NCBI GenBank assembly: GCA_038199185.1
Contig: JBBPZE010000060.1
Span: 5,066-69,065, forward strand
DNA: 64,000 bases
From: Solirubrobacterales bacterium
GTDB lineage: Bacteria > Actinomycetota > Thermoleophilia > Solirubrobacterales > Solirubrobacteraceae
Reading direction: 5' to 3'
Positions 20,799 to 31,976 of this stretch are shown here, one piece after another. Made by a program: the position numbers and the translations under genes. Numbering within the stretch: position 1 is the first letter of the stretch; every line of letters begins with the position of its first letter. The notes beneath the pieces were generated by a model. That model worked only from the letters and a program-made list of their open reading frames with translations, ran no database searches and was not told the origin of the DNA.

Positions 20799-21122
20799 TG
20801 GGTCGCTTGGGACTCGAACCCAAATCTGACGGATTAACTTGCCGCACCGGCTTTCACCGGCCACCCGCCTGGCGGGCTTGCGGTCTGGACCATCTCTTCG
20901 CCCTCGACTCGACGTTAGGGCGGGCGGCGTATGGCCTCTGAGGGCTCTCCGCTCTCACGGGTTGCCTGCTGATCGCCCAATCCCTCGGATTTTCACCGCG
21001 CTCGCGCGCTGGTACCTCGGGCTCTCAGGGGGTTCCAGCAAACAGCCGCCGACATACCAGTGGTTTCCCTACTGGCGCTCCTTTCGTGAAGTCCGTTGCT
21101 CTACCAATTGAGCTAGCGACCC
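20799..21122 (-). tRNA. tRNA-Lys (anticodon UUU) interrupted in the anticodon loop by a group I intron.
   Basis: The 5' exon (21122-21089) is GGGTCGCTAGCTCAATTGGTAGAGCAACGGACTT. The 3' exon (20837-20799) is TTAATCCGTCAGATTTGGGTTCGAGTCCCAAGCGACCCA. Joined, they give a 73-nt cloverleaf with loop CTTTTAA. Confidence 0.85.
20838..21088 (-). ncRNA. Group I intron (IC3-like, tRNA-anticodon-loop type), 251 nt, with no internal ORF.
   Basis: The 5' exon ends in U and the intron ends in G. It contains CCAGUAGGGAAACCACUGG (GAAA-capped P2-like hairpin). The core GCCCUAACGUCGAGUCGAGGGCGAAGAGAUGGUCCA closely parallels the cyanobacterial tRNA-Leu intron core as I recall it. A terminal GCCGGUGAAAGCCGGUGC hairpin is also present. 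Confidence 0.8.
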
Positions 21123-21123
21123 A

Positions 21124-21196
21124 TACCCCCAGCCGGACTCGAACCGGCGATCTTCTGCGTGAAAGGCAGACGTCCTGACCACTAGACCATGGGGGC
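21124..21196 (-). tRNA. tRNA-Glu (anticodon UUC).
   Basis: GCCCCCATGGTCTAGTGGTCAGGACGTCTGCCTTTCACGCAGAAGATCGCCGGTTCGAGTCCGGCTGGGGGTA. Its 3' end lies 1 nt from the tRNA-Lys 5' end. Confidence 0.9.
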
Positions 21197-21235: not shown

Positions 21236-21249
21236 CGAACATGTGTTCG
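21236..21249. promoter_or_regulatory. Candidate LexA (Cheo/SOS) box.
   Basis: CGAAC-ATGT-GTTCG is a perfect match to the Gram-positive CGAAC-RNRY-GTTCG core. It lies about 55 nt upstream of the HNH gene ATG. Confidence 0.45.
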
Positions 21250-21302
21250 TGCGCAGGATCGCCGGCCGGCCCTCCCCTCCGAGACCCGATGACCGCAATG
21301 GG

Positions 21303-21656
21303 ATGTGCAAGCGGCATGGCCGGGGGATCTTCCGGCGCTATGGCGACCGCTGGAGGTGTCGGCGTTGCGTCAGCGAAGCGGTCACCCGCCGACACCGGGT
21401 GGTCCGAATGCTGCTGGTCGCCGAGGCCGGCGGTTGCTGTGCGATCTGCGGCTATGCCCGCTGCGGGTGGAACCTGCATTTCCACCATGTCGATCCTGCC
21501 GAGAAGTCGTTCGCGATGACCATGGCCAGCGGCAAGGGCCTGGCGCAGTACCGGACCGAGGCGACGAAGTGCGTTCTGCTCTGCGCGAACTGTCACGGAG
21601 AGGTCGAGGCGGGCCTCATCCCCAGCCCACCCACCGGCGCGGTATTCGCCGCCTGA
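21303..21656 (+). CDS. HNH endonuclease family protein.
   Basis: CCAICGY...NLHFHHVDPAEK...CVLLCANCHGEVE. The track start at 21189 overlaps tRNA-Glu, so ATG 21303 is preferred. Confidence 0.7.
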   Translation: MCKRHGRGIFRRYGDRWRCRRCVSEAVTRRHRVVRMLLVAEAGGCCAICGYARCGWNLHFHHVDPAEKSFAMTMASGKGLAQYRTEATKCVLLCANCHGEVEAGLIPSPPTGAVFAA

Positions 21657-23362
21657 CGCGCCGCCGCGCGGCGACGGGCCGATGGAGAGCGGAGGGCGTC
21701 GAACAGCAGGTCGATCGAGCGGTCGAGCTGGTCGATCGTGGCTTCCTGTACGCGGGTGACGCCCACCTCGCGGTTGACCCACGCGTTGATCTCCGCCGGG
21801 GGGCGCCCCGTGCTGCGGCCGAGATCGGTCACGAGGCGGCGGCGGTCCTCGCGCAGTCGCTTACGCCGCTCGAACGCCGACACGGCGGGGACCGGTTCCG
21901 GGGCGGCGACCGCCGGGGCCGCCGTGAGTGCCGCTGCGGGCGGGGACGGCCCGCCGCCGAAGAGCGCCATCTGCGGCGCGACATCCGCGGAGAGGGCGAC
22001 GAAGGCGGGCGCCTCCGTCTGCTCGCTCTCGCCGCCCTCCGGCGGCTCGTCGAGCAGCGCCTCGGCGGCATCGGCAGGGGCGAGGACGTGCAGCAGCTCG
22101 CGCTCGACGTCGGCCGCATGGGCCTGCAGGACGGGGTCGCCCGGGAGGTAGAGCCAGCTGCACTCCACGCGCGCTCCCGCGATGACCCGGACGAAGCGGC
22201 CGACGATCTGGCGGAAGATGAGCGCGGTCTTGGCCGCCGTCGCGTAGACACCGACCCGCAGCCGCGGGATGTCGACGCCCTCGGAGACCATGTTGACCGC
22301 CACGATCCAGCGGCGATTGCCGTTGCGAAACGCCTCGAGCTTGGCGTGCGCGCGAGGGTCGGTGTGGACGACCACCGTCGGCGCCTCGCCGGAGATCTCG
22401 CGGAGGACCATCGCCACCCGCCGGGCGTGGGCGGCGTCGGCGGCCACGACCAGGCCCCCGGCGTCGCGGTGGCCGCCGGATCTGCGCACGTCCTCGAGCC
22501 GTGCGTGCGCCTCGCGCAGGATCCGGGGCAGCCCGTTCTCCAGCTCGGTGGAGATCGCGGTGCGGTAGCGGCGCGAGGACTCGCGGGCCGTGAGCACGTC
22601 GTTGAACCCGGCCTCGATCACGTCGTCGCCGTTGCGCCACTGCAGCGTGCCGTCGAACGGGATGAAGGTGACGGGCCGGCAGATCCCGTCGCGCACCGCG
22701 TCGTCGTAGCCGTAGGTGAAGTCCGGAACCGCCACGCCGTCGTGGCCGTAGTGCACGCCCGGAATCGGCGTCGCGTCCGAGCGGAAGGGCGTCCCCGTCA
22801 ACAGCAGCCGGCGGCCCGCGGCGGCGAACGCCTGCTCGAAGGCGTTGCCCCACGCGAGGTCGTCTCCGAGGTGGTGGACCTCGTCGGCGATGACCAGCGT
22901 GCCGGGGGTGCACGTCCGCATGAAGGCGGCCACCGCACCCGCGACCCGCGCATAGGTCACCGCCACCCCGTGGAAGTCGCGCGGAGGTCTGAGGTCGGGC
23001 GCGTCCGGCGCGAGCTGCAGCCCCAGGCGCCCGGCGGCCCTGGCCCACTGCCGGGTGAGCGGGCTCGTCGGGCAGACGACTGCGACCCGCGTGATCGCGC
23101 CGGACTTCAGGAGTCCCCCGGCCAGCTCCAGCGCGGGGCGCGTCTTTCCCGCACCGGGTGCCGCGTTGAGGAGAAAGCAGCCGGAGCTCCACGTCGCCAT
23201 GCGCTCGAGCACATCGGTCTGCCAGCCGCGGAGGGTTGTCACAGGCTGGGCCGGCAGCGAAAGGAGACCATCGAGAGCGGGCAGTGTGCGACGCGGTCCG
23301 GACGGACAGGGCAAACCCCTGCACACGGGGCCACGCGGGTGCCCGCCTTCGATCGCCCGCAC
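21593..23362 (-). CDS. SF2 DEAD/DEAH-box helicase.
   Basis: LNAAPGAGKTR (motif I), IADEVHHLG (motif II), LLLTGTPFRSD (motif III), VNMVSEGVDIPRL. Confidence 0.8.
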   Translation of the reverse strand: MRAIEGGHPRGPVCRGLPCPSGPRRTLPALDGLLSLPAQPVTTLRGWQTDVLERMATWSSGCFLLNAAPGAGKTRPALELAGGLLKSGAITRVAVVCPTSPLTRQWARAAGRLGLQLAPDAPDLRPPRDFHGVAVTYARVAGAVAAFMRTCTPGTLVIADEVHHLGDDLAWGNAFEQAFAAAGRRLLLTGTPFRSDATPIPGVHYGHDGVAVPDFTYGYDDAVRDGICRPVTFIPFDGTLQWRNGDDVIEAGFNDVLTARESSRRYRTAISTELENGLPRILREAHARLEDVRRSGGHRDAGGLVVAADAAHARRVAMVLREISGEAPTVVVHTDPRAHAKLEAFRNGNRRWIVAVNMVSEGVDIPRLRVGVYATAAKTALIFRQIVGRFVRVIAGARVECSWLYLPGDPVLQAHAADVERELLHVLAPADAAEALLDEPPEGGESEQTEAPAFVALSADVAPQMALFGGGPSPPAAALTAAPAVAAPEPVPAVSAFERRKRLREDRRRLVTDLGRSTGRPPAEINAWVNREVGVTRVQEATIDQLDRSIDLLFDALRSPSARRRAAARQAANTAPVGGLGMRPASTSP

Positions 23363-23755
23363 CTAATCGGAGTCAGCGACGCACGCGGTCGCCTCGACCT
23401 CAACGAGCATGCGCGGGCCGATCAGCCCGGCCACCTGCACCATCGCGGAGGCCGGCGGCGCCGCACCGAATGCGTCCGCGTGGGCACGGCCGATGTCCGG
23501 CCAGCACGAGACGTCCGTCACGTAGACGCGCGTCTGGACCAGGTCGCCCGGTCCAGCGCCCGCCTGGGCGAGCGCCGCGACGACATTGCGACACGCCTGC
23601 GCGGTCTGCTCGTAGGCGTCATCGGAGACCAGCTCGCCGTCGGCCCCCACCCCCGTGCAGCCGGCCACGAACACCAGCCGGCCCGCACGGACGGCCCGGC
23701 TATAGCCGATCGCCTGCTCCCAGCGCCCTCCGGAGGCGAAGCGCTCGATGCTCAA
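23363..23755 (-). CDS. ridA: RidA/YjgF family reactive-intermediate deaminase.
   Basis: A TTG start gives SIERFASGGRWEQAIGYSRAVRAGRLVFVAGCTG...VQVAGL. Only the 3' third of track ORF 23363..24094 is coding-like. Confidence 0.75.
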   Translation of the reverse strand: MSIERFASGGRWEQAIGYSRAVRAGRLVFVAGCTGVGADGELVSDDAYEQTAQACRNVVAALAQAGAGPGDLVQTRVYVTDVSCWPDIGRAHADAFGAAPPASAMVQVAGLIGPRMLVEVEATACVADSD

Positions 23756-25293
23756 TGCCGGAAGTGCCGGCGACGGGTGAACACCATCGCGATGCCGGCC
23801 TCGTCGGCCGCCGCGACGACATCGCCGTCGCGAACCGAGCCACCCGGCTGGATCACGGCCGTCACGCCTGCCTCGATGGCCAGCTCCGGGCCGTCGGCGA
23901 ACGGGAAGAACGCGTCGGACGCGAGCGCCGCGCCCCCCAGGTCCTGCTGCGCCTTCTCGACGGCCAGGCGCACCGAGTCCACGCGGCTCATCTGTCCCGC
24001 GCCGATTCCGACCGTGGCCAGGTCCTTGGCCAGCACGATCGCGTTGGAGCGAACGTGCCGGGCCACGCTCCAGGCGAAGAGCATGTCGCTCCACTCCGGT
24101 TCGGTCGGCGACCGCTGCGTGACGACCTCCATCGAGGTTCGCTCGTCCGCGCCGCTGTCAGCGTCCTGGACGAGCAGGCCGCCGAGCACCTGCTTGAGCT
24201 CGGGCTCGCCCGTGTTCGGCAGGCGCTGCTCGTCGTTCTGCAGGATGCGGATGTTCGGCTTCTGTGTGAGGACCTCGAGCGCGTCATCCTCGTAGCCCGG
24301 CGAGAGGATGACCTCCACGAACTGCGCGGAGATCGCCTCGGCGAGCTCGCGATCGATGGGCCGATTGACGGCGATCACCCCACCGAAGGCGCTCTGCGGG
24401 TCGGTGGCGAACGCGCGCCGGTAGGCGTCCAGCGGCGTGCTCCCCAGCGCCGCGCCGCACGGGTTGTTGTGCTTGACGATCACGCACGCCGGGGCATCGA
24501 AGCCCGCCACCAGCGCACGCGCCGCATCAAGGTCGAGCAGGTTGTTGAACGACAGCTGCTTGCCGTGGTGCTGGCGGACCATCGAGAGCAGGTGCATCCG
24601 CGCCCCCACCCGCTGGTAGTACGCGGCCCGCTGGTGGGGGTTCTCGCCGTAGGGCAGGTCGACGACCTTCTCGAACGCGCGCACGAGCAGCGGCGGGAAG
24701 TCCTCGCCCTTCTCGGCGAACCAGCGGGCGATCGCGGTGTCGTAGCGCGCGGTCAGCGCGAACGCGTCCCCCGCCAGGTGCTCGCGCGTCGGCATCGAGA
24801 GATGGGCGCCGGACGATCGCAGCTCCTCCATCACCGCGTCGTAGCTCTCGGGGCTCACCACCACCGCCGTGAATGCATGGTTCTTGGCGGCCGCCCGGAT
24901 CATCGTCGGCCCGCCGATGTCGATGTTCTCGATGATGTCCTCGTCAGCGGCGTCGCGGCGCGCCGCGGTCCGCTCGAACGGATAGAGGTTCACGCACACG
25001 AGATCGACCATCTCGACACCGTGGTGATCAGCCTGTTCGAGGTGCTCGGGGTTCGAGCGGACGGCGAGCAGACCCGCGTAGAGCTTGGGGTGCAACGTCT
25101 TGACGCGGCCGTCCATGATCTCCGGAAAGCCCGTGAAGTCCTCCACCGCCCACACCTCGAGGCCCGCCTCGCGCAGCGTCTGGGCCGTGCCCCCCGTGGA
25201 GATCAGCTCGATGCCGAGCTCCGCGAGGCCGCGAGCGAAGTCGACGATCCCGCGCTTGTCCGAAACCGAGAGAAGAGCGCGACGGACCCGCAC
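23752..25293 (-). CDS. purH: Bifunctional AICAR formyltransferase / IMP cyclohydrolase.
   Basis: RRALLSVSDKRGIVDFA, STGGTA, ...DAFFPFADG...HFRH. GTG 25293 gives 513 aa; the alternative ATG 25371 leaves only about 30 nt to the divergent gene. Confidence 0.9.
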   Translation of the reverse strand: MRVRRALLSVSDKRGIVDFARGLAELGIELISTGGTAQTLREAGLEVWAVEDFTGFPEIMDGRVKTLHPKLYAGLLAVRSNPEHLEQADHHGVEMVDLVCVNLYPFERTAARRDAADEDIIENIDIGGPTMIRAAAKNHAFTAVVVSPESYDAVMEELRSSGAHLSMPTREHLAGDAFALTARYDTAIARWFAEKGEDFPPLLVRAFEKVVDLPYGENPHQRAAYYQRVGARMHLLSMVRQHHGKQLSFNNLLDLDAARALVAGFDAPACVIVKHNNPCGAALGSTPLDAYRRAFATDPQSAFGGVIAVNRPIDRELAEAISAQFVEVILSPGYEDDALEVLTQKPNIRILQNDEQRLPNTGEPELKQVLGGLLVQDADSGADERTSMEVVTQRSPTEPEWSDMLFAWSVARHVRSNAIVLAKDLATVGIGAGQMSRVDSVRLAVEKAQQDLGGAALASDAFFPFADGPELAIEAGVTAVIQPGGSVRDGDVVAAADEAGIAMVFTRRRHFRH

Positions 25294-25402
25294 GTCGCCG
25301 GGGGCTATCCCCCCGGGACCCGGCGGATCGAACGATTCGGTGGCGGGGGGCTCGGAGATGAGAGCGAGCATAAACGGCGGCCCTCCCGGGAAGCCCGTAC
25401 CC

Positions 25403-25663
25403 ATGGACTCTGACCCGGAGAAGGCCATCGAACGCGACGCCGACGAGCTCGAGCAGCGGGTCGAGCGACTGGGCGAGCACATCGACGAGGCGAAGGATCA
25501 CCTCGAACAGCGCGCCAAGGACGCTCAGCGCCTTGGTCAGGCGGAGGACGTCGCCGGCGACTGGGACCAGACCGACGACCAGGCGGGCGGCGAGGACCCG
25601 GTCGGCGCCCACACCGAGCACGACGAGGCCTCCGAGGACGAACGGCCCGGCAACGGCGGGTAG
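25403..25663 (+). CDS. Small acidic coiled-coil protein, hypothetical.
   Basis: 86 aa, MDSDPEKAIERDADELEQRVERLGEHIDEAKDHLEQRAKD... GC3 is high in this frame. Confidence 0.5.
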   Translation: MDSDPEKAIERDADELEQRVERLGEHIDEAKDHLEQRAKDAQRLGQAEDVAGDWDQTDDQAGGEDPVGAHTEHDEASEDERPGNGG

Positions 25664-26262
25664 TCAGCCCACGAGCAGCCGCCGTGGGTTCGACGGGTCG
25701 CGCCGCACCGCTCCGCGGGCGATCATCCGGACCGCCTCGGGCAGCAGGGCGTGCTCGAGCGGTCGCAGGCGATCGTGCACGAGAGCGGGATCGGACGCGT
25801 CGGGGATCTCGATCGCGGCCTGCAGGAGGATCGGCCCGGTGTCGACACCCTCGTCGACGAGGTGAACGGTCACGCCGAAGACCTTCACGCCGTAGCGCAC
25901 GGCCTGCCCGATCGCGTCGACACCGGGAAAGGCCGGCAGCAGCGCGGGGTGGACGTTGACCACGCGGTCGGGGAACCGGGCCAGGAAGGTTCCGCTGAGC
26001 AGTTGCATGTAACCCGCGAGGACAACCAGGCCGACGCCGTTGCCCACCAGCCAGTCGGCCATCGCGCTGTCGCGCGCCTCGCGGTCGGCGAACGCCTCGC
26101 GGCCGAACACGCGCGTCGACACGCCGAGGCGTGCGGCGCGATCCAGGGCCGGTGCGCCGGCCCTGTCGCTGGCCACCGCCGTGACCTCGACCTCGCGGCC
26201 GTGCACGGTGTCGAGCAGCGCCTGGAGGTTGGTCCCGGCGCCGGACGCCAGGACGCCGAGCT

Positions 26263-26266
<4 letters not shown>
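25664..26266 (-). CDS. purN: Phosphoribosylglycinamide formyltransferase.
   Basis: LGVLASGAGTNLQAL, NVHPALLPAFPG, VHLVDEGVDTGPIL. The GTG start overlaps the recQ stop (GTGA). Confidence 0.9.
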
Positions 26267-28080
<1,814 letters not shown>

Positions 28081-28124
28081 AGCGACGCGGGCGGCCGCAT
28101 CGGCCGGCCTGTGCAGAGTCGTTG

Positions 28125-28138
28125 CGAAGCGCGGTTCG
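28125..28138. promoter_or_regulatory. SOS-box-like palindrome upstream of recQ, with one mismatch.
   Basis: CGAAG-CGCG-GTTCG (minus strand: CGAAC-CGCG-CTTCG). It lies 45-60 nt upstream of the recQ start. Confidence 0.25.
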
Positions 28139-28162
28139 CGCGGTGGGAAACGAGGACCTGCG

Positions 28163-29614
28163 CTACGCGTGGACGACCGGCAGCTCGAGGGCGTACTTGC
28201 CGTCGCCCTCGGCCAGCGCGAGCGGATACTCCCCCGAGAAGCAGGCGTCGCAGTGCTCGCCACGGTCGCCGCCGATCGCCTCGTAGACGCCGGCGAGCGA
28301 GAGGTAGGCGAGCGAGTCGCAGCCGAGCTCGGCGGCGACCTCGTCGACCGTCCGGTTGTGGGCGATCATCTCCTCGCGCGTGGACATGTCGATCCCGTAG
28401 TGGCAGGGATGCTTGATCGGGGGGGCGCTGATTCGCAGGTGGACCTCGCGCGCACCGGCATCGCGCAGCATCTGGACGATCTGGCGGGTCGTGTTGCCGC
28501 GCACGATGGAGTCGTCGACGACCACCAGCGAGCGGCCGGCGACGATCTCGGGCAGCGGGTTGAACTTCAGGCGCAGGCCCTGCTTGCGCAGCTCCTGCCC
28601 GGGCTGGATGAACGTCCGCGCCACGTAGCGGTTCTTGACGAACCCGTCGTCGGTCGGCAGGCCCGCGCCGCGCGAGTAGCCACGGGCGGCGGCGTTGCCC
28701 GAGTCCGGGACGGGGATGACCAGGTCGGCACCGGGCGCCGGGGCCTCGCGGGCGAGGATCTCGCCCATCCGCCCGCGCGCGGCCTGCAGCGACTGGCCGC
28801 CCATGCGCGAGTCGGGCCGCGCGAAGTAGATGTACTCGAAGACGCAGAACGCCCGGCGGCTGCCCTCCACGGCGATCCGCGACTCGAGGCCGCGCGCGCT
28901 CAGCGAGACGACCTCGCCCGGCTCGACGTCGCGCAGCAGCGTCGCGCCGATGATGTCCAGCGCGCAAGACTCGCTGGCCACGCAGTAGCGGTCGCCGAGC
29001 TGGCCGATGACCAGGGGGCGCAGGCCGGCCGGATCGCGGAACGCCACCACCCGGTCGTTGGTCATGACGACCGTCGAGAAGGCGCCGTGCATGCGGGGCA
29101 TGACGTCGGCGACCGCGTCCTGCACGGAATCGAGCTCGTGGGTGGCCAGGAGCGCGGCGATGATCTCGGAGTCCGACGTCGAGCGGAACGCCACGCCCGC
29201 CTCGCGCAGCTCGGAGTGCAGCTCGACCGCGTTGACCAGGTTGCCGTTGTGGGCCAGCGCGATCTCGCGGCGGTTGCCGCCGTCGCCCGCCGACCGGTGT
29301 ACGGGCTGGGAGTTCTCCCAGGCGCTCGAGCCGGTCGTCGAATAGCGCACGTGCCCGATGGCGAGGTCGCCGGCGAGCGTGCGCAGGTCGTGCTCGGTGA
29401 ACACCTGGCTGACCAGGCCCTGGTTGCGCAGCGTCATGACGTGCCCGCCCTGGTCGGCAGCGGCGATCCCGGCCGACTCCTGACCGCGGTGCTGCAGGGC
29501 GTATAGCGCGAAATAGGCGAGTCGCGAGACGTCGTGCTCGGGTCCGTAGATACCGAAGACGCCACACTCGTCGCGGGGTCCATCGCGCGGGTCGAAGAGA
29601 GGTAGAGGCTGCAT
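28163..29614 (-). CDS. purF: Amidophosphoribosyltransferase.
   Basis: MQPLPLFDPRDGPRDE propeptide followed by CGVFGIYG (Ntn Cys). PRPP loop VVVDDSIVRGNT. C-terminal Cys residues are present. Confidence 0.9.
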   Translation of the reverse strand: MQPLPLFDPRDGPRDECGVFGIYGPEHDVSRLAYFALYALQHRGQESAGIAAADQGGHVMTLRNQGLVSQVFTEHDLRTLAGDLAIGHVRYSTTGSSAWENSQPVHRSAGDGGNRREIALAHNGNLVNAVELHSELREAGVAFRSTSDSEIIAALLATHELDSVQDAVADVMPRMHGAFSTVVMTNDRVVAFRDPAGLRPLVIGQLGDRYCVASESCALDIIGATLLRDVEPGEVVSLSARGLESRIAVEGSRRAFCVFEYIYFARPDSRMGGQSLQAARGRMGEILAREAPAPGADLVIPVPDSGNAAARGYSRGAGLPTDDGFVKNRYVARTFIQPGQELRKQGLRLKFNPLPEIVAGRSLVVVDDSIVRGNTTRQIVQMLRDAGAREVHLRISAPPIKHPCHYGIDMSTREEMIAHNRTVDEVAAELGCDSLAYLSLAGVYEAIGGDRGEHCDACFSGEYPLALAEGDGKYALELPVVHA

Positions 29615-29756
29615 GGCAGCGACTTGAGCGAGTGTAGCGTCGGGGTCGGGCGGAGCCGTGGCGGCTCGGGCCGCCCCCCGGCTTGGGGGCGCCGTCCTGC
29701 TTGAAGGTCCTCTGGCCACCTCTATCCAGGACGGGACGCGGCGAAACCGCGGGCGA

Positions 29757-31976
29757 TCACGGAAACAGCGGCGCGAGCGCGGCGTGGGCCTCGCGAAGCG
29801 AGGCGAGCGTCCAGGAGACGCCGACGGCCTCGAGGGCGTCGCCGCCGACCGTGCCGATGATGCGCGCGTCCGGCAGCGCCCGCAGCGCGTCGCGAGAGCC
29901 CGACACGACGAACCCCCCGGTCCCCTCGCCGAAGAGCAGATCCTCCGCGTCGCCGCCCAGGTCCAGGCGCGCGCCGATCCCTCCCGCCAGGCGCGCGCCG
30001 ATCCCTCCCTGCCGGCCCCCGCCGATCCCTCCCGCCAGGCACGACTCGGCCACCGCGACGAGCACACCGCCCTCGGCGACGTCGTGGGCGCTGGCGAGGA
30101 CTCCCGCTCGCACGGCGTCGCGGATCGCCTCCTGGACCCCCCGGACCACGGCCACGTCGGTCTCGGGCAGCTCGCCCGGCAGGGCCTCGCCGCGCAGCTT
30201 GGCCAGCTCGGATCCGGGCACCCGCGGGGAGAACGCGCCCACCAGGGCGATGGCGTCGCCCTCGCGACAAAAGCCGAGGCGGCCCGCGGCGCGCGGATTG
30301 GGGAGCTCGCCTACGAGCCCGACCACGGGCGTCGGGTAGATCGGGCCGTCGGCTCCCTCGTTATAGAGCGAGACGTTGCCCCCCACCACGGGGATGCCGA
30401 GCGCCCGGCAGGCGTCCCCGAGGCCGCGTATCGATTCGGTCAGCTGCCAGGCGATGTGGGGCTTCTCCGGGTTGCCGAAGTTCAGGCAGTTGGTCAGGCC
30501 CAACGGCTCGGCCCCGACGCACGCGAGGTTCGCGGCGCACTCCAGGACGGCCTCCACCGTCCCCCGGTAGGGGTCGATCGCGACGCGGCGCCCGCTGCCG
30601 TCGATCGACACGCCGATCCCCCGGCCGTTGGGCAGCGCGAGCACCGCGGCGTCGGCCTGCTCGGGGCGCCGCGCGGTGCGGGCGCCGACCAGGCAGTCGT
30701 ACTGCTCGAACAGCGGGCGCCGCGAGGCGATGTTGGGCGAGGCCAGCAGCGCGAGGAGGATCTCGCGCACGGACCGGCCGCCTTCGAGGATCGCCCGGGG
30801 CGCTGCATAAATGGGCGCGGAGGGGGGTTCGGGAGCGAGGTCGTAGAGCGGGCAGTCGTCGACCAGGGCCTCGACGGGGATGTCGCCCACGACCTCGTCG
30901 CCGCGCAGGATGCGCATGCGGCGGGTGGCGGTGACCTGCCCGACGACGGTGCCGTGCACCTCCCACTTCTCACACACGCGGAGCACCTCGTCCACGCGCC
31001 CGGGCTCGGCGACGCACAGCATCCGCTCCTGGGACTCCGAGACCATTATCTCGAAGGGCGCCATGTCGTCCTCGCGCAGCGGCACGCATGCGACGTCGAG
31101 GTCAATGCCGACCCCGCCGGCGCTGGCCATCTCGCTGGCGCTCGACGTCAGCCCCGCCGCGCCCAGGTCTTGCAACGACACCAGGAGCCGGCGCTCGAGC
31201 AGCTCGAGCGAGCACTCGATCAGCTTGTTCTCGGTGAACGGGTCACCGACCTGGACCGACGGGCGCTTGGAGTCGTCGTCGTCCTCGAGCTCGGCGGAGG
31301 CGAGCACGGACGCGCCGCCGATCCCGTCGCGGCCGGTGGAGGCGCCGAACAGGATGACCGGGTTGCCGACGCCGGCGGCCGCGCTGCGGATCATGTCGTC
31401 GCGGCGGGCGAGGCCGAGCGCCATCGCGTTGACCAGGCAGTTGGTCTCGTAGGGGCCTTCGAAGTAGACCTCGCCGCCGACCGTCGGCACGCCCACGCTG
31501 TTGCCGTAGTGGCCGATGCCGGCGACCGCGCGATCGAGCAGGTAGCGCGACCGCTCCGAGGTCGGCTCGCCGAAGCGCAAGGAGTCGAGCACGGCGATCG
31601 GCCGCGCGCCGATCGCGAAGATGTCGCGCAGGATGCCGCCTACGCCGGTGGCCGCTCCCTGGAATGGCTCGACCGCGCTCGGGTGGTTGTGGGACTCGAC
31701 CTTGAACGCAACCGCCCAGCCGTCGCCGACGTCCACCGCCCCCGCGTTCTCCCCGGGGCCCATCACGACCCGCGCGCCCTCCGTGGGGAGCGTGCGCAGC
31801 AGCCGCTTGGAGTGCTTGTAGGCGCAATGCTCGCTCCACAGGAGGCTGAACATCGCCAGCTCGACCTCGTTGGGCTCCCGCGCGAGCTTCTCGCACACCA
31901 GCGCGTACTCTTCCCGGGTCAGGCCCAGCGCGACGGCCCGCCCGACGCCGGGGACGGCCGCGGTCTCAGCGGGCAA
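29757..31976 (-). CDS. purL: Phosphoribosylformylglycinamidine synthase subunit PurL.
   Basis: [17 protein letters not shown], and AIR-synthase-like duplicated domains. 739 aa. Confidence 0.9.
29964..30035. repeat. Three in-frame 24-nt tandem repeats inside purL.
   Basis: Units are caggcgcgcgccgatccctcccgc, caggcgcgcgccgatccctccctg and ccggcccccgccgatccctcccgc. They encode [24 protein letters not shown]. Confidence 0.85.

Follow-up and report, generated by a model that had tools for sequence, protein, structure and literature searches.

A Group I Intron of the Lys.3Ug Class in the Anticodon Loop of tRNA-Lys(UUU) in a Thermoleophilia-Type Actinobacterium

Introduction

Two halves of a tRNA gene lie 251 nucleotides (nt) apart on the minus strand of a 64,000-nt stretch of DNA from a Solirubrobacterales bacterium (GenBank assembly GCA_038199185.1, contig JBBPZE010000060.1; the whole stretch is hereafter called the window), which raises the question of whether the sequence between them is an intron whose removal would yield a working tRNA, or whether the gene is a decaying copy. 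The evidence presented here argues that the locus is very likely a functional tRNA-Lys(UUU) gene, split at the U34/U35 junction by a group I intron of 251 nt that has no open reading frame (ORF) and falls into the Lys.3Ug class; by analogy with known group I introns, guanosine-initiated self-splicing would release tRNA-Lys(UUU) from the precursor. The case for this gene rests on undamaged exons, on a complete fold with covariation and on a degree of conservation that the neighboring genes do not reach.

Exons and Boundaries of the Split Gene

The 5' exon, GGGTCGCTAGCTCAATTGGTAGAGCAACGGACTT, comprises nt 1-34 of the tRNA (21089-21122, minus strand; 34 nt) and ends in ACGGACUU, with U34 as its last base. 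The 3' exon, TTAATCCGTCAGATTTGGGTTCGAGTCCCAAGCGACCCA, comprises nt 35-73 (20799-20837, minus strand; 39 nt), starts with UUAAUCCGU and ends with GCGACCCA, the CCA being unencoded. Between them, also on the minus strand, lies the intron (CACGAAAGGAG...GGCAAG; 20838-21088), which begins with C at 21088 and ends with the omega-G at 20838. With its default settings ARAGORN reports no tRNA at 20799-21122. Given the joined exons, it recognizes a tRNA-Lys(ttt) whose cloverleaf is canonical, and when introns are allowed it sets an intron of 251 nt at position 35, in agreement with an earlier reading of the locus made from its letters only (the sequence-only reading), which had proposed the same two halves and the same tRNA. 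The boundaries are further supported by an intronless tRNA-Lys of another organism, found on a metagenome DNA contig from one run, which skips exactly 20838-21088. Thus, the ends of the insert coincide with the natural exon junction, the insertion point lying after U34 and before U35 and the last inserted base being a G.

The exons are unbroken in nearly all relatives, and independent assemblies contain an identical sequence of the split gene region. In the metagenome contig Ga0126313_10000213 (L151; loci used for comparison are given by such L numbers), the intron has the same sequence as in L073, whereas the halves of the anticodon stem are mismatched (3' TCCGT vs 5' AGGGA), which may reflect recombination between exons or a chimera formed across the conserved intron during assembly. 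As the sequence-only reading had stated, the intron holds no credible ORF: a 90-amino-acid ORF at 20839-21111 (plus strand) and a minus-strand ORF starting from 20864 have no Pfam match, and relatives of the intron vary by indels of 1-2 nt.

Group I Identity and Fold

The insert is a bona fide group I intron. The Rfam model Intron_gpI (RF00028), searched in E-value mode over 551 nt, aligns with it from end to end (model positions 1-253; 43.3 bits, E 8.5e-10); at the gathering threshold, Rfam gives no intron match at the site, and a relative, L235, exceeds that threshold with 58.8 bits. None of the RF00028 seeds was bacterial, as pointed out by Williams (2020, bioRxiv 10.1101/2020.01.27.920355). 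A profile built from relatives, with the window sequence left out, recovers the intron at E 1.5e-70 as its sole match in the 64 kb.

The paired segments P1-P9 were drawn by hand and tested on 11 aligned tRNA-Lys introns that are related to one another, including the published intron Mle24.Lys.3Ug, with helix partners slid along the alignment and 500 shuffles as controls. In these 11 sequences, 92.3% of the cells are paired, compared with 36-49% in the slid controls, and 20 pairs show compensatory changes on both sides, a number reached in none of the 500 shuffles. Both helices of the P3/P7 pseudoknot covary, and the omega-G before the 3' splice site is kept in every copy compared.

In P1 (21078-21091, minus strand, as are all elements of the fold; helix 1), the internal guide GGAG pairs with the exon CUU and the first intron C, and a U·G wobble of U34 marks the 5' splice site. 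Its four pairs hold in 11/11 sequences and the wobble is invariant. The sequence-only reading was right in proposing a group I intron that follows a U and ends in G. The GAAA-capped hairpin GGGAAACC pointed out in the sequence-only reading is present and corresponds to P2 (21056-21076; helix 2), with its tetraloop L2 at 21064-21067 and four pairs that are changed on both sides. The 5' strand of P3 (21045-21050) opens the segment 20943-21050, which also holds the P4-P6 domain with P4, P5, P5a/P5b/P5c (GCGA loop), P6 and P6a (helices 3-8). Two pairs of P3 change on both sides, and four pair types occur at one of them. No change is seen in P4 or P5, and the P5a (7 base pairs, bp)/P5b/P5c extension is present and covarying (helices 6-7). 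Introns of 23S rRNA have this architecture as well.

J6/7 and the 5' strand of P7 (GAGGCCAU, with a bulged A; 20931-20938) are followed by the 3' strand of P3 (GCCGCC; 20923-20928), the two together spanning 20923-20938 (helices 3 and 9). P7 is 97% paired and shows C-G to U-A and G·U to A-U exchanges. By the anatomy of group I introns, the G-C pair beside its bulged A is presumed to be the guanosine-binding site. The P8 hairpin CCCUAAC...GAGGG (20901-20920; helices 10-11) carries a GNRA-tetraloop receptor of the IC3 type, a receptor class that dominates the L2-P8 contact of group I introns (PMC11571812), and is likely the docking site of L2. J8/7 (GAAGAG) and the 3' strand of P7 (AUGGUCC, 20887-20893) occupy 20887-20900, as placed by the RF00028 alignment and by covariation. 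The three-way P9 domain (20838-20883; helices 12-13) consists of P9 (20879-20883 / 20842-20846), P9a (20863-20877), P9b with a GAAA loop (20847-20860) and the tail CAAG, which runs to the omega-G. Four pairs of this domain are changed on both sides, and a relative in a metatranscriptome shows the compensatory change C20874U / G20866A in P9a.

Assignment to the Lys.3Ug Class

The sequence-only reading had listed four textbook hosts of bacterial tRNA group I introns, a list superseded when the settings of intron-bearing bacterial tRNAs were raised from the four classical ones to 21 (Williams, 2020, bioRxiv 10.1101/2020.01.27.920355). Among the seeds of that alignment are Mle24.Lys.3Ug, Mpe6.Lys.4Ug and Dba165.Lys.2Ug, and Mle24.Lys.3Ug alone matches the window at 21084-20845 with E 6.4e-23 (nhmmer). 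The window intron has the features that define Lys.3Ug, i.e., a tRNA-Lys host, insertion between anticodon-loop positions 3 and 4 (nt 34/35), U(-1) and omega-G. It therefore belongs to a class that was catalogued in 2020, so far in that preprint only, and is not a new type.

Mle24.Lys.3Ug shares with the window intron the identical host and site (CUU / intron ...g / UUAA; seed line CUUCA...cagg), U(-1) and omega-G, P1 (CUUC...GGAG), a P4-P6 domain that includes the P5 extension GUGA(C/A)AAUCCGAGGGAUUGGG, J6/7-P7 (UCAGAG...) and the layout of P9, and the two can be aligned with compensatory changes between them. They differ in that their segments are only about 55% similar (112/204), in P8, where Mle24.Lys.3Ug has CACCUGAC.../GAAGGUG and the window intron CCCUAAC/GAGGG, and in the sequences of P2 and P9a.

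Subgroup of the Core

The sequence-only reading had also described the core as nearly superimposable on that of the cyanobacterial tRNA-Leu(UAA) introns of subgroup IC3. In a segment-wise comparison of 44 introns (maximum score 204), this is true of the P8 receptor and of a section of J8/7 but not of P3-P7: Sel1.Leu.3Ug, with 54/204, has the lowest total of all 44, tied with two others, and is notably similar to the window intron in P8 only (11/24). The highest scores against the window intron are those of tRNA-Lys introns of its own family, here called family A (114-178), and of Mle24.Lys.3Ug (112), followed by introns of 23S rRNA genes (69-100) and by classical IC3 introns (54-65). The window core reads GGCUGUUUGCUGGAAC in P3-P4, GUGAAAAUCC in the P5 extension, GAUCAGCAGGCAAC in P4'-P6 and CUCAGAGGCCAUACGC in J6/7-P7.

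Compared with the classical IC3 tRNA introns (Sel1.Leu.3Ug and Ncf2.Leu.3Ug; tRNA-fMet; Aol6.Ile2.5Ug of Azoarcus), the window intron is likewise small and free of an ORF, has GAAA loops in P2 and in the P9 region and carries the IC3-type P8 receptor, which reads CCCUAACG...CGAGGG in Sel1.Leu.3Ug and Tpc1.fMet.2Ug; with the tRNA-Leu(UAA) intron it shares the site after CUU, between nt 34 and 35. Thus, a GNRA loop in L2 (GAAA) and a matching P8 receptor (CCCUAAC/GAGGG), as expected of IC3, are both present. The core itself is different: IC3 introns have AAAUUCGGGGAA / AAUCCCGAGCCAAG / GUAGAGACUAGACGG / AAGGGAUAGUCC and a short P5, whereas the window intron has GUUUGCUGGAAC / GAUCAGCAGGCAAC / CUCAGAGGCCAUACGC / GAAGAGAUGGUCC and, in place of a compact P4-P6 domain, a covarying P5a-c; P5(a-d) regions are stated to be absent from IC3 introns (PMC11835236). 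Because the classical IC3 seeds score 54-65/204 against 69-100 for the 23S rRNA introns, the window intron is regarded as group IC-like, with its subgroup left open, and is not filed as IC3. It was also considered whether family A stems from the tRNA-Leu(UAA) intron of cyanobacteria, which would have reverse-spliced into ACGGACUU as a similar context; this origin was rejected because the window core is least like that of the Leu introns.

Bacterial group I introns at about L1917/L1931 of 23S rRNA have been characterized as IC1-like introns whose P5 is complex (Haugen et al., 2007, PMC1995217). They resemble the window intron in the P3-P4 core, the P5 extension GGUAC...GUGACAAUCC, P4'-P6 CAAUCAGCAGG, J6/7-P7 (CUCAGAGRCYAYACGC) and J8/7 (GAAGAKAURGUCC), and ORF-less copies rank directly below the Lys introns in the segment comparison. 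They differ in their rRNA host, in often carrying LAGLIDADG-type ORFs, in having been described without P2 (PMC1995217), in P9 GAUCUGCAUGGCGACAUGCAG and in the absence of the L2-P8 pair found in the window intron. Additionally, 13 metagenome contigs each contain two group I cores a few hundred bases apart (L121, L153, L156, L161, L166, L182, L186, L198, L200, L208, L226, L228 and L237). Many of their flanks correspond to 23S rRNA at about 1917-1951, many copies carry LAGLIDADG-like ORFs, and among the matches listed the nearest relative of the window intron outside tRNA genes is found in their P3-P7 core.

Distribution and Inheritance

An exon-anchored scan of species-representative genomes gave at least 120 matches, those listed being mostly chance similarities or ordinary tRNA-Ile(UAU) and tRNA-Arg(UCU) genes, and revealed at least 10 tRNA-Lys(UUU) genes split after U34, under four phylum-level group names. 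With these and more than 20 related loci that carry the intron, mostly at a syntenic locus of Thermoleophilia type, the earlier description of a tRNA-Lys host as uncommon appears overstated. Among the genome-scan matches listed, two intron families occupy the 34/35 site. Family A, to which the window intron belongs, is represented by metagenome-assembled genomes (MAGs) of Thermoleophilaceae (L073, L076) and by Rhodothermales (L106, L118). Family B is unrelated to it and has an IC3 core resembling that of Azoarcus; it is found in MAGs of Alphaproteobacteria/Pseudomonadota (L031, L066, L100, L102) and in Nesterenkonia alkaliphila F10 (L107), an actinobacterium in culture; its P1 (CUUCAAUAGGAG) matches the Rba190.Arg.3Ug seed of Williams. 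A further tRNA-Lys(UUU) gene split after U34 occurs in Gemmatimonadaceae (L041). The metagenomes were scanned with a core pattern, which gave at least 120 matches, those listed being mainly 23S rRNA introns, and yielded at least nine family-A tRNA-Lys loci; 10 more were found beside homologues of an HNH endonuclease gene that neighbors the tRNA in the window.

The family-A introns of L076 (CAWBLN010000009.1) and L073 (DATFQM010000026.1) are orthologous to the window intron and lie at a syntenic locus, on the purH side and near a tRNA-Glu/Val cluster. Those of the soil metagenome contigs L138, L175, L188, L216, L241-L245, L250 and L257-L259 are likewise orthologous and have the same helices. 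Differences within the family concern the loop lengths of P5c, P6a and P9a, the intron length (242-299 nt) and the adjacent HNH gene, which some members lack. The tRNA and intron together are 82-87% identical to the Thermoleophilaceae loci, and the flanking genes at 23759-31549, including purH, share 73-77% DNA identity with L076, L073, L151 and L146. This similarity identifies the host, an uncultured soil bacterium, as a Thermoleophilia-type actinobacterium, consistent with the high-GC Gram-positive type suggested by the sequence-only reading. Judged from these alignments, the intron looks to have been retained at a syntenic locus, mainly through vertical inheritance in this lineage.

Two side observations were made in the course of the scans. 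The Rhodothermales copies (L106, 6036-6410; L118, 646-1040) carry within P6 a structured insertion of 110-130 nt, and their P8 has no receptor of the IC3 type. In Shewanella benthica DSM 8812 (L072, 6813-7500), three tRNA-like 5' halves (TGGTAGAGCAAGTGACTT) are arranged in tandem, each followed by non-tRNA sequence, and ARAGORN with introns allowed did not resolve them.

Proposed Splicing and Codon Demand

The split gene lies one base downstream of a tRNA-Glu(UUC) gene on the same strand (21124-21196, minus strand; ARAGORN and Rfam), a pairing also present in the relatives L138 and L241-L245, and the two are probably co-transcribed. The splicing pathway proposed here takes its chemistry from established knowledge of group I introns. 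The tRNA-Glu/tRNA-Lys precursor would be transcribed from the minus strand and its intron RNA would fold into P1-P9 with the P3/P7 pseudoknot, the GAAA loop of L2 docking on the IC3-type receptor of P8 and the GAAA loop of P9b probably docking on the P5 region. Pairing of the guide GGAG with the exon CUU and the first intron C would set U34 in its U·G wobble, and a free guanosine, held at the G-C pair beside the bulged A of P7, would attack after U34. The omega-G (20838) would then take the guanosine site and the 3'-OH of U34 would attack before U35, so that the exons would be ligated into a tRNA with the anticodon UUU. P10 would be weak (~2 bp); alignment of the exons is probably aided by the anticodon stem ACGGA/UCCGU, in the manner of the Anabaena pre-tRNA-Leu.

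Among some 10,700 likely-coding codons (20 frames) of the window, which has a GC content of 71%, AAA occurs 7 times and AAG 215 times. This rarity of AAA implies that tRNA-Lys(UUU) is in low demand, i.e., the intron interrupts the least-used lysine isoacceptor. Such low demand may make the intron cheap to carry; the tRNA would nevertheless be required if it is the sole UUU isoacceptor.

Evidence Against and Alternative Explanations

Four observations weigh against a functional, self-splicing gene. The covariance-model check suggested by the sequence-only reading was only partly favorable, since the full-length RF00028 match scores 43.3 bits, below the gathering score of 50 bits. P1 comprises just 4 bp and P10 about 2 bp, and P5a of the window copy contains a tandem G·A/A·G mismatch. 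Finally, the ligated junction of this tRNA was not found in public metatranscriptome contigs; the only exon 'joints' in public RNA contigs are intronless tRNA-Lys genes of other organisms. Soil metatranscriptome contigs do cover relatives of the intron.

Were the intron or the split gene non-functional, its role would have to be filled by another, intact tRNA-Lys(UUU) gene of the genome. The sub-threshold Rfam score fits such a decaying copy, as does the scarcity of AAA (7 vs 215 AAG), given which selection on the tRNA may be weak. However, all core helices are intact and have been kept so by compensatory changes while the flanking genes diverged to 73-77%, the exon cloverleaf is perfect, and the intron region is better conserved than the adjacent protein genes. 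Moreover, intronless relatives have an intact tRNA-Lys(UUU) at a comparable spot by the tRNA-Glu and HNH genes, which suggests that this is the regular tRNA-Lys(UUU) locus of the lineage. Decay is thus a quite improbable account of the locus. The same weaknesses of structure, namely the short P1 and P10 and the tandem G·A mismatch in P5a of the window copy, could instead mean that the group I intron is genuine but that its splicing in the cell needs a protein helper, such as a chaperone or a maturase-like factor, as is established for many group I introns in vivo. The peripheral contacts through which small tRNA introns of bacteria become self-sufficient (the L2 GAAA, the IC3-type P8 receptor and the P9b GAAA) are nevertheless present, and no partner gene is conserved, the HNH neighbor being missing in L073, L076, L138, L151 and L175; a dependence on such a helper would therefore be surprising.

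It might also be argued that a chimeric contig has fused tRNA halves to an unrelated ribozyme, given that the window comes from a metagenome-derived genome and that the exon halves of L151 are mismatched, possibly through chimerism. Yet at least three independent runs yield contigs with the same arrangement, several MAGs and more than 20 metagenome loci show it too, and the exon boundaries are exact, which leaves an assembly artefact with a negligible chance of being right. A functional tRNA-Lys(UUU) gene interrupted by a Lys.3Ug-class intron is therefore the preferred reading.

The Neighboring HNH Endonuclease Gene

On the opposite strand, 53 nt upstream of tRNA-Glu, lies a gene for an HNH endonuclease of 135 amino acids (21249-21656, plus strand), whose GTG start is overlapped by a LexA-type box, CGAACATGTGTTCG, at 21236-21249, so that the two features together span 21236-21656. 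The protein matches the HNH endonuclease family phrog_2255 of PHROGs with E 1.9e-22 and has no match in Pfam, NCBIfam or a PDB sequence search. Its homologues number more than 1200 (63-80% identity), from which 21 loci were sampled (L241-L261). In 20/21 of these the HNH gene has a tRNA-Lys(UUU) gene as its immediate neighbor, the contig of the remaining one (L242) ending before the expected position. Ten loci have a tRNA-Lys split by a family-A intron on the opposite strand, and 10, six of them from one protein cluster, have an intronless tRNA-Lys on the same strand that ends about 25-35 nt before the HNH gene. At least five different outer gene contexts occur among the sampled loci. The HNH gene is missing at the five intron-bearing loci L073, L076, L138, L151 and L175 and is frameshifted in L188.

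The 20/21 adjacency, the variety of outer contexts and the absence or frameshift of the HNH gene beside other copies of the intron favor a two-part mobile system ('collaborative homing') made up of the ORF-less intron and the HNH gene, an idea that is nonetheless doubtful. Going by its sequence context, the HNH protein could be a free-standing, SOS-induced homing endonuclease with a predicted target in or beside the tRNA-Lys(UUU) gene. If so, intron alleles would be immune, since the intron splits the DNA of the anticodon loop, the intronless neighbors would hold divergent, resistant tRNA-Lys sequences, and repair of the cut would spread the HNH gene and the intron jointly. On the other hand, purH recurs nearby, and the linkage of the HNH and tRNA-Lys genes can therefore be explained by old synteny. 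This is the simpler reading of the gene order, and any link between the HNH gene and the intron is putative.

Several other features of this neighborhood were recorded. In most loci read, the LexA-type box is closely preceded by a short CCGTCCG(G) motif. In the part of the window that covers 21593-23362 and 23752-25482 (both minus strand), a ResIII/Helicase_C-like gene lies between the HNH gene and purH, the order SDR / tRNA / HNH / helicase / RidA / purH recurs in L241 and L242, and in L076 the tRNA is only about 415 nt from purH. A 996-amino-acid ORF at 21305-24295 was dismissed as spurious: it has no Pfam match and overlaps the helicase-like gene on the opposite strand.

Implications

The understanding of the mechanism of group I introns is unchanged by this locus, which adds a well-supported, vertically maintained example from Actinomycetota to a class documented in a preprint. 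It indicates that the 34/35 site of tRNA-Lys(UUU) has been used by two intron families, one with a core like that of 23S rRNA introns, as in the window, and the other with an Azoarcus-like core, and that the window intron unites a core of complex-P5 type with an L2-P8 contact of IC3 type. The locus is of value chiefly because it closes an annotation gap. Since the RF00028 score is below the gathering score, default pipelines overlook both the intron and the tRNA; genomes of Thermoleophilia type that carry the intron will thus appear to be without tRNA-Lys(UUU), distorting tRNA censuses and completeness checks.

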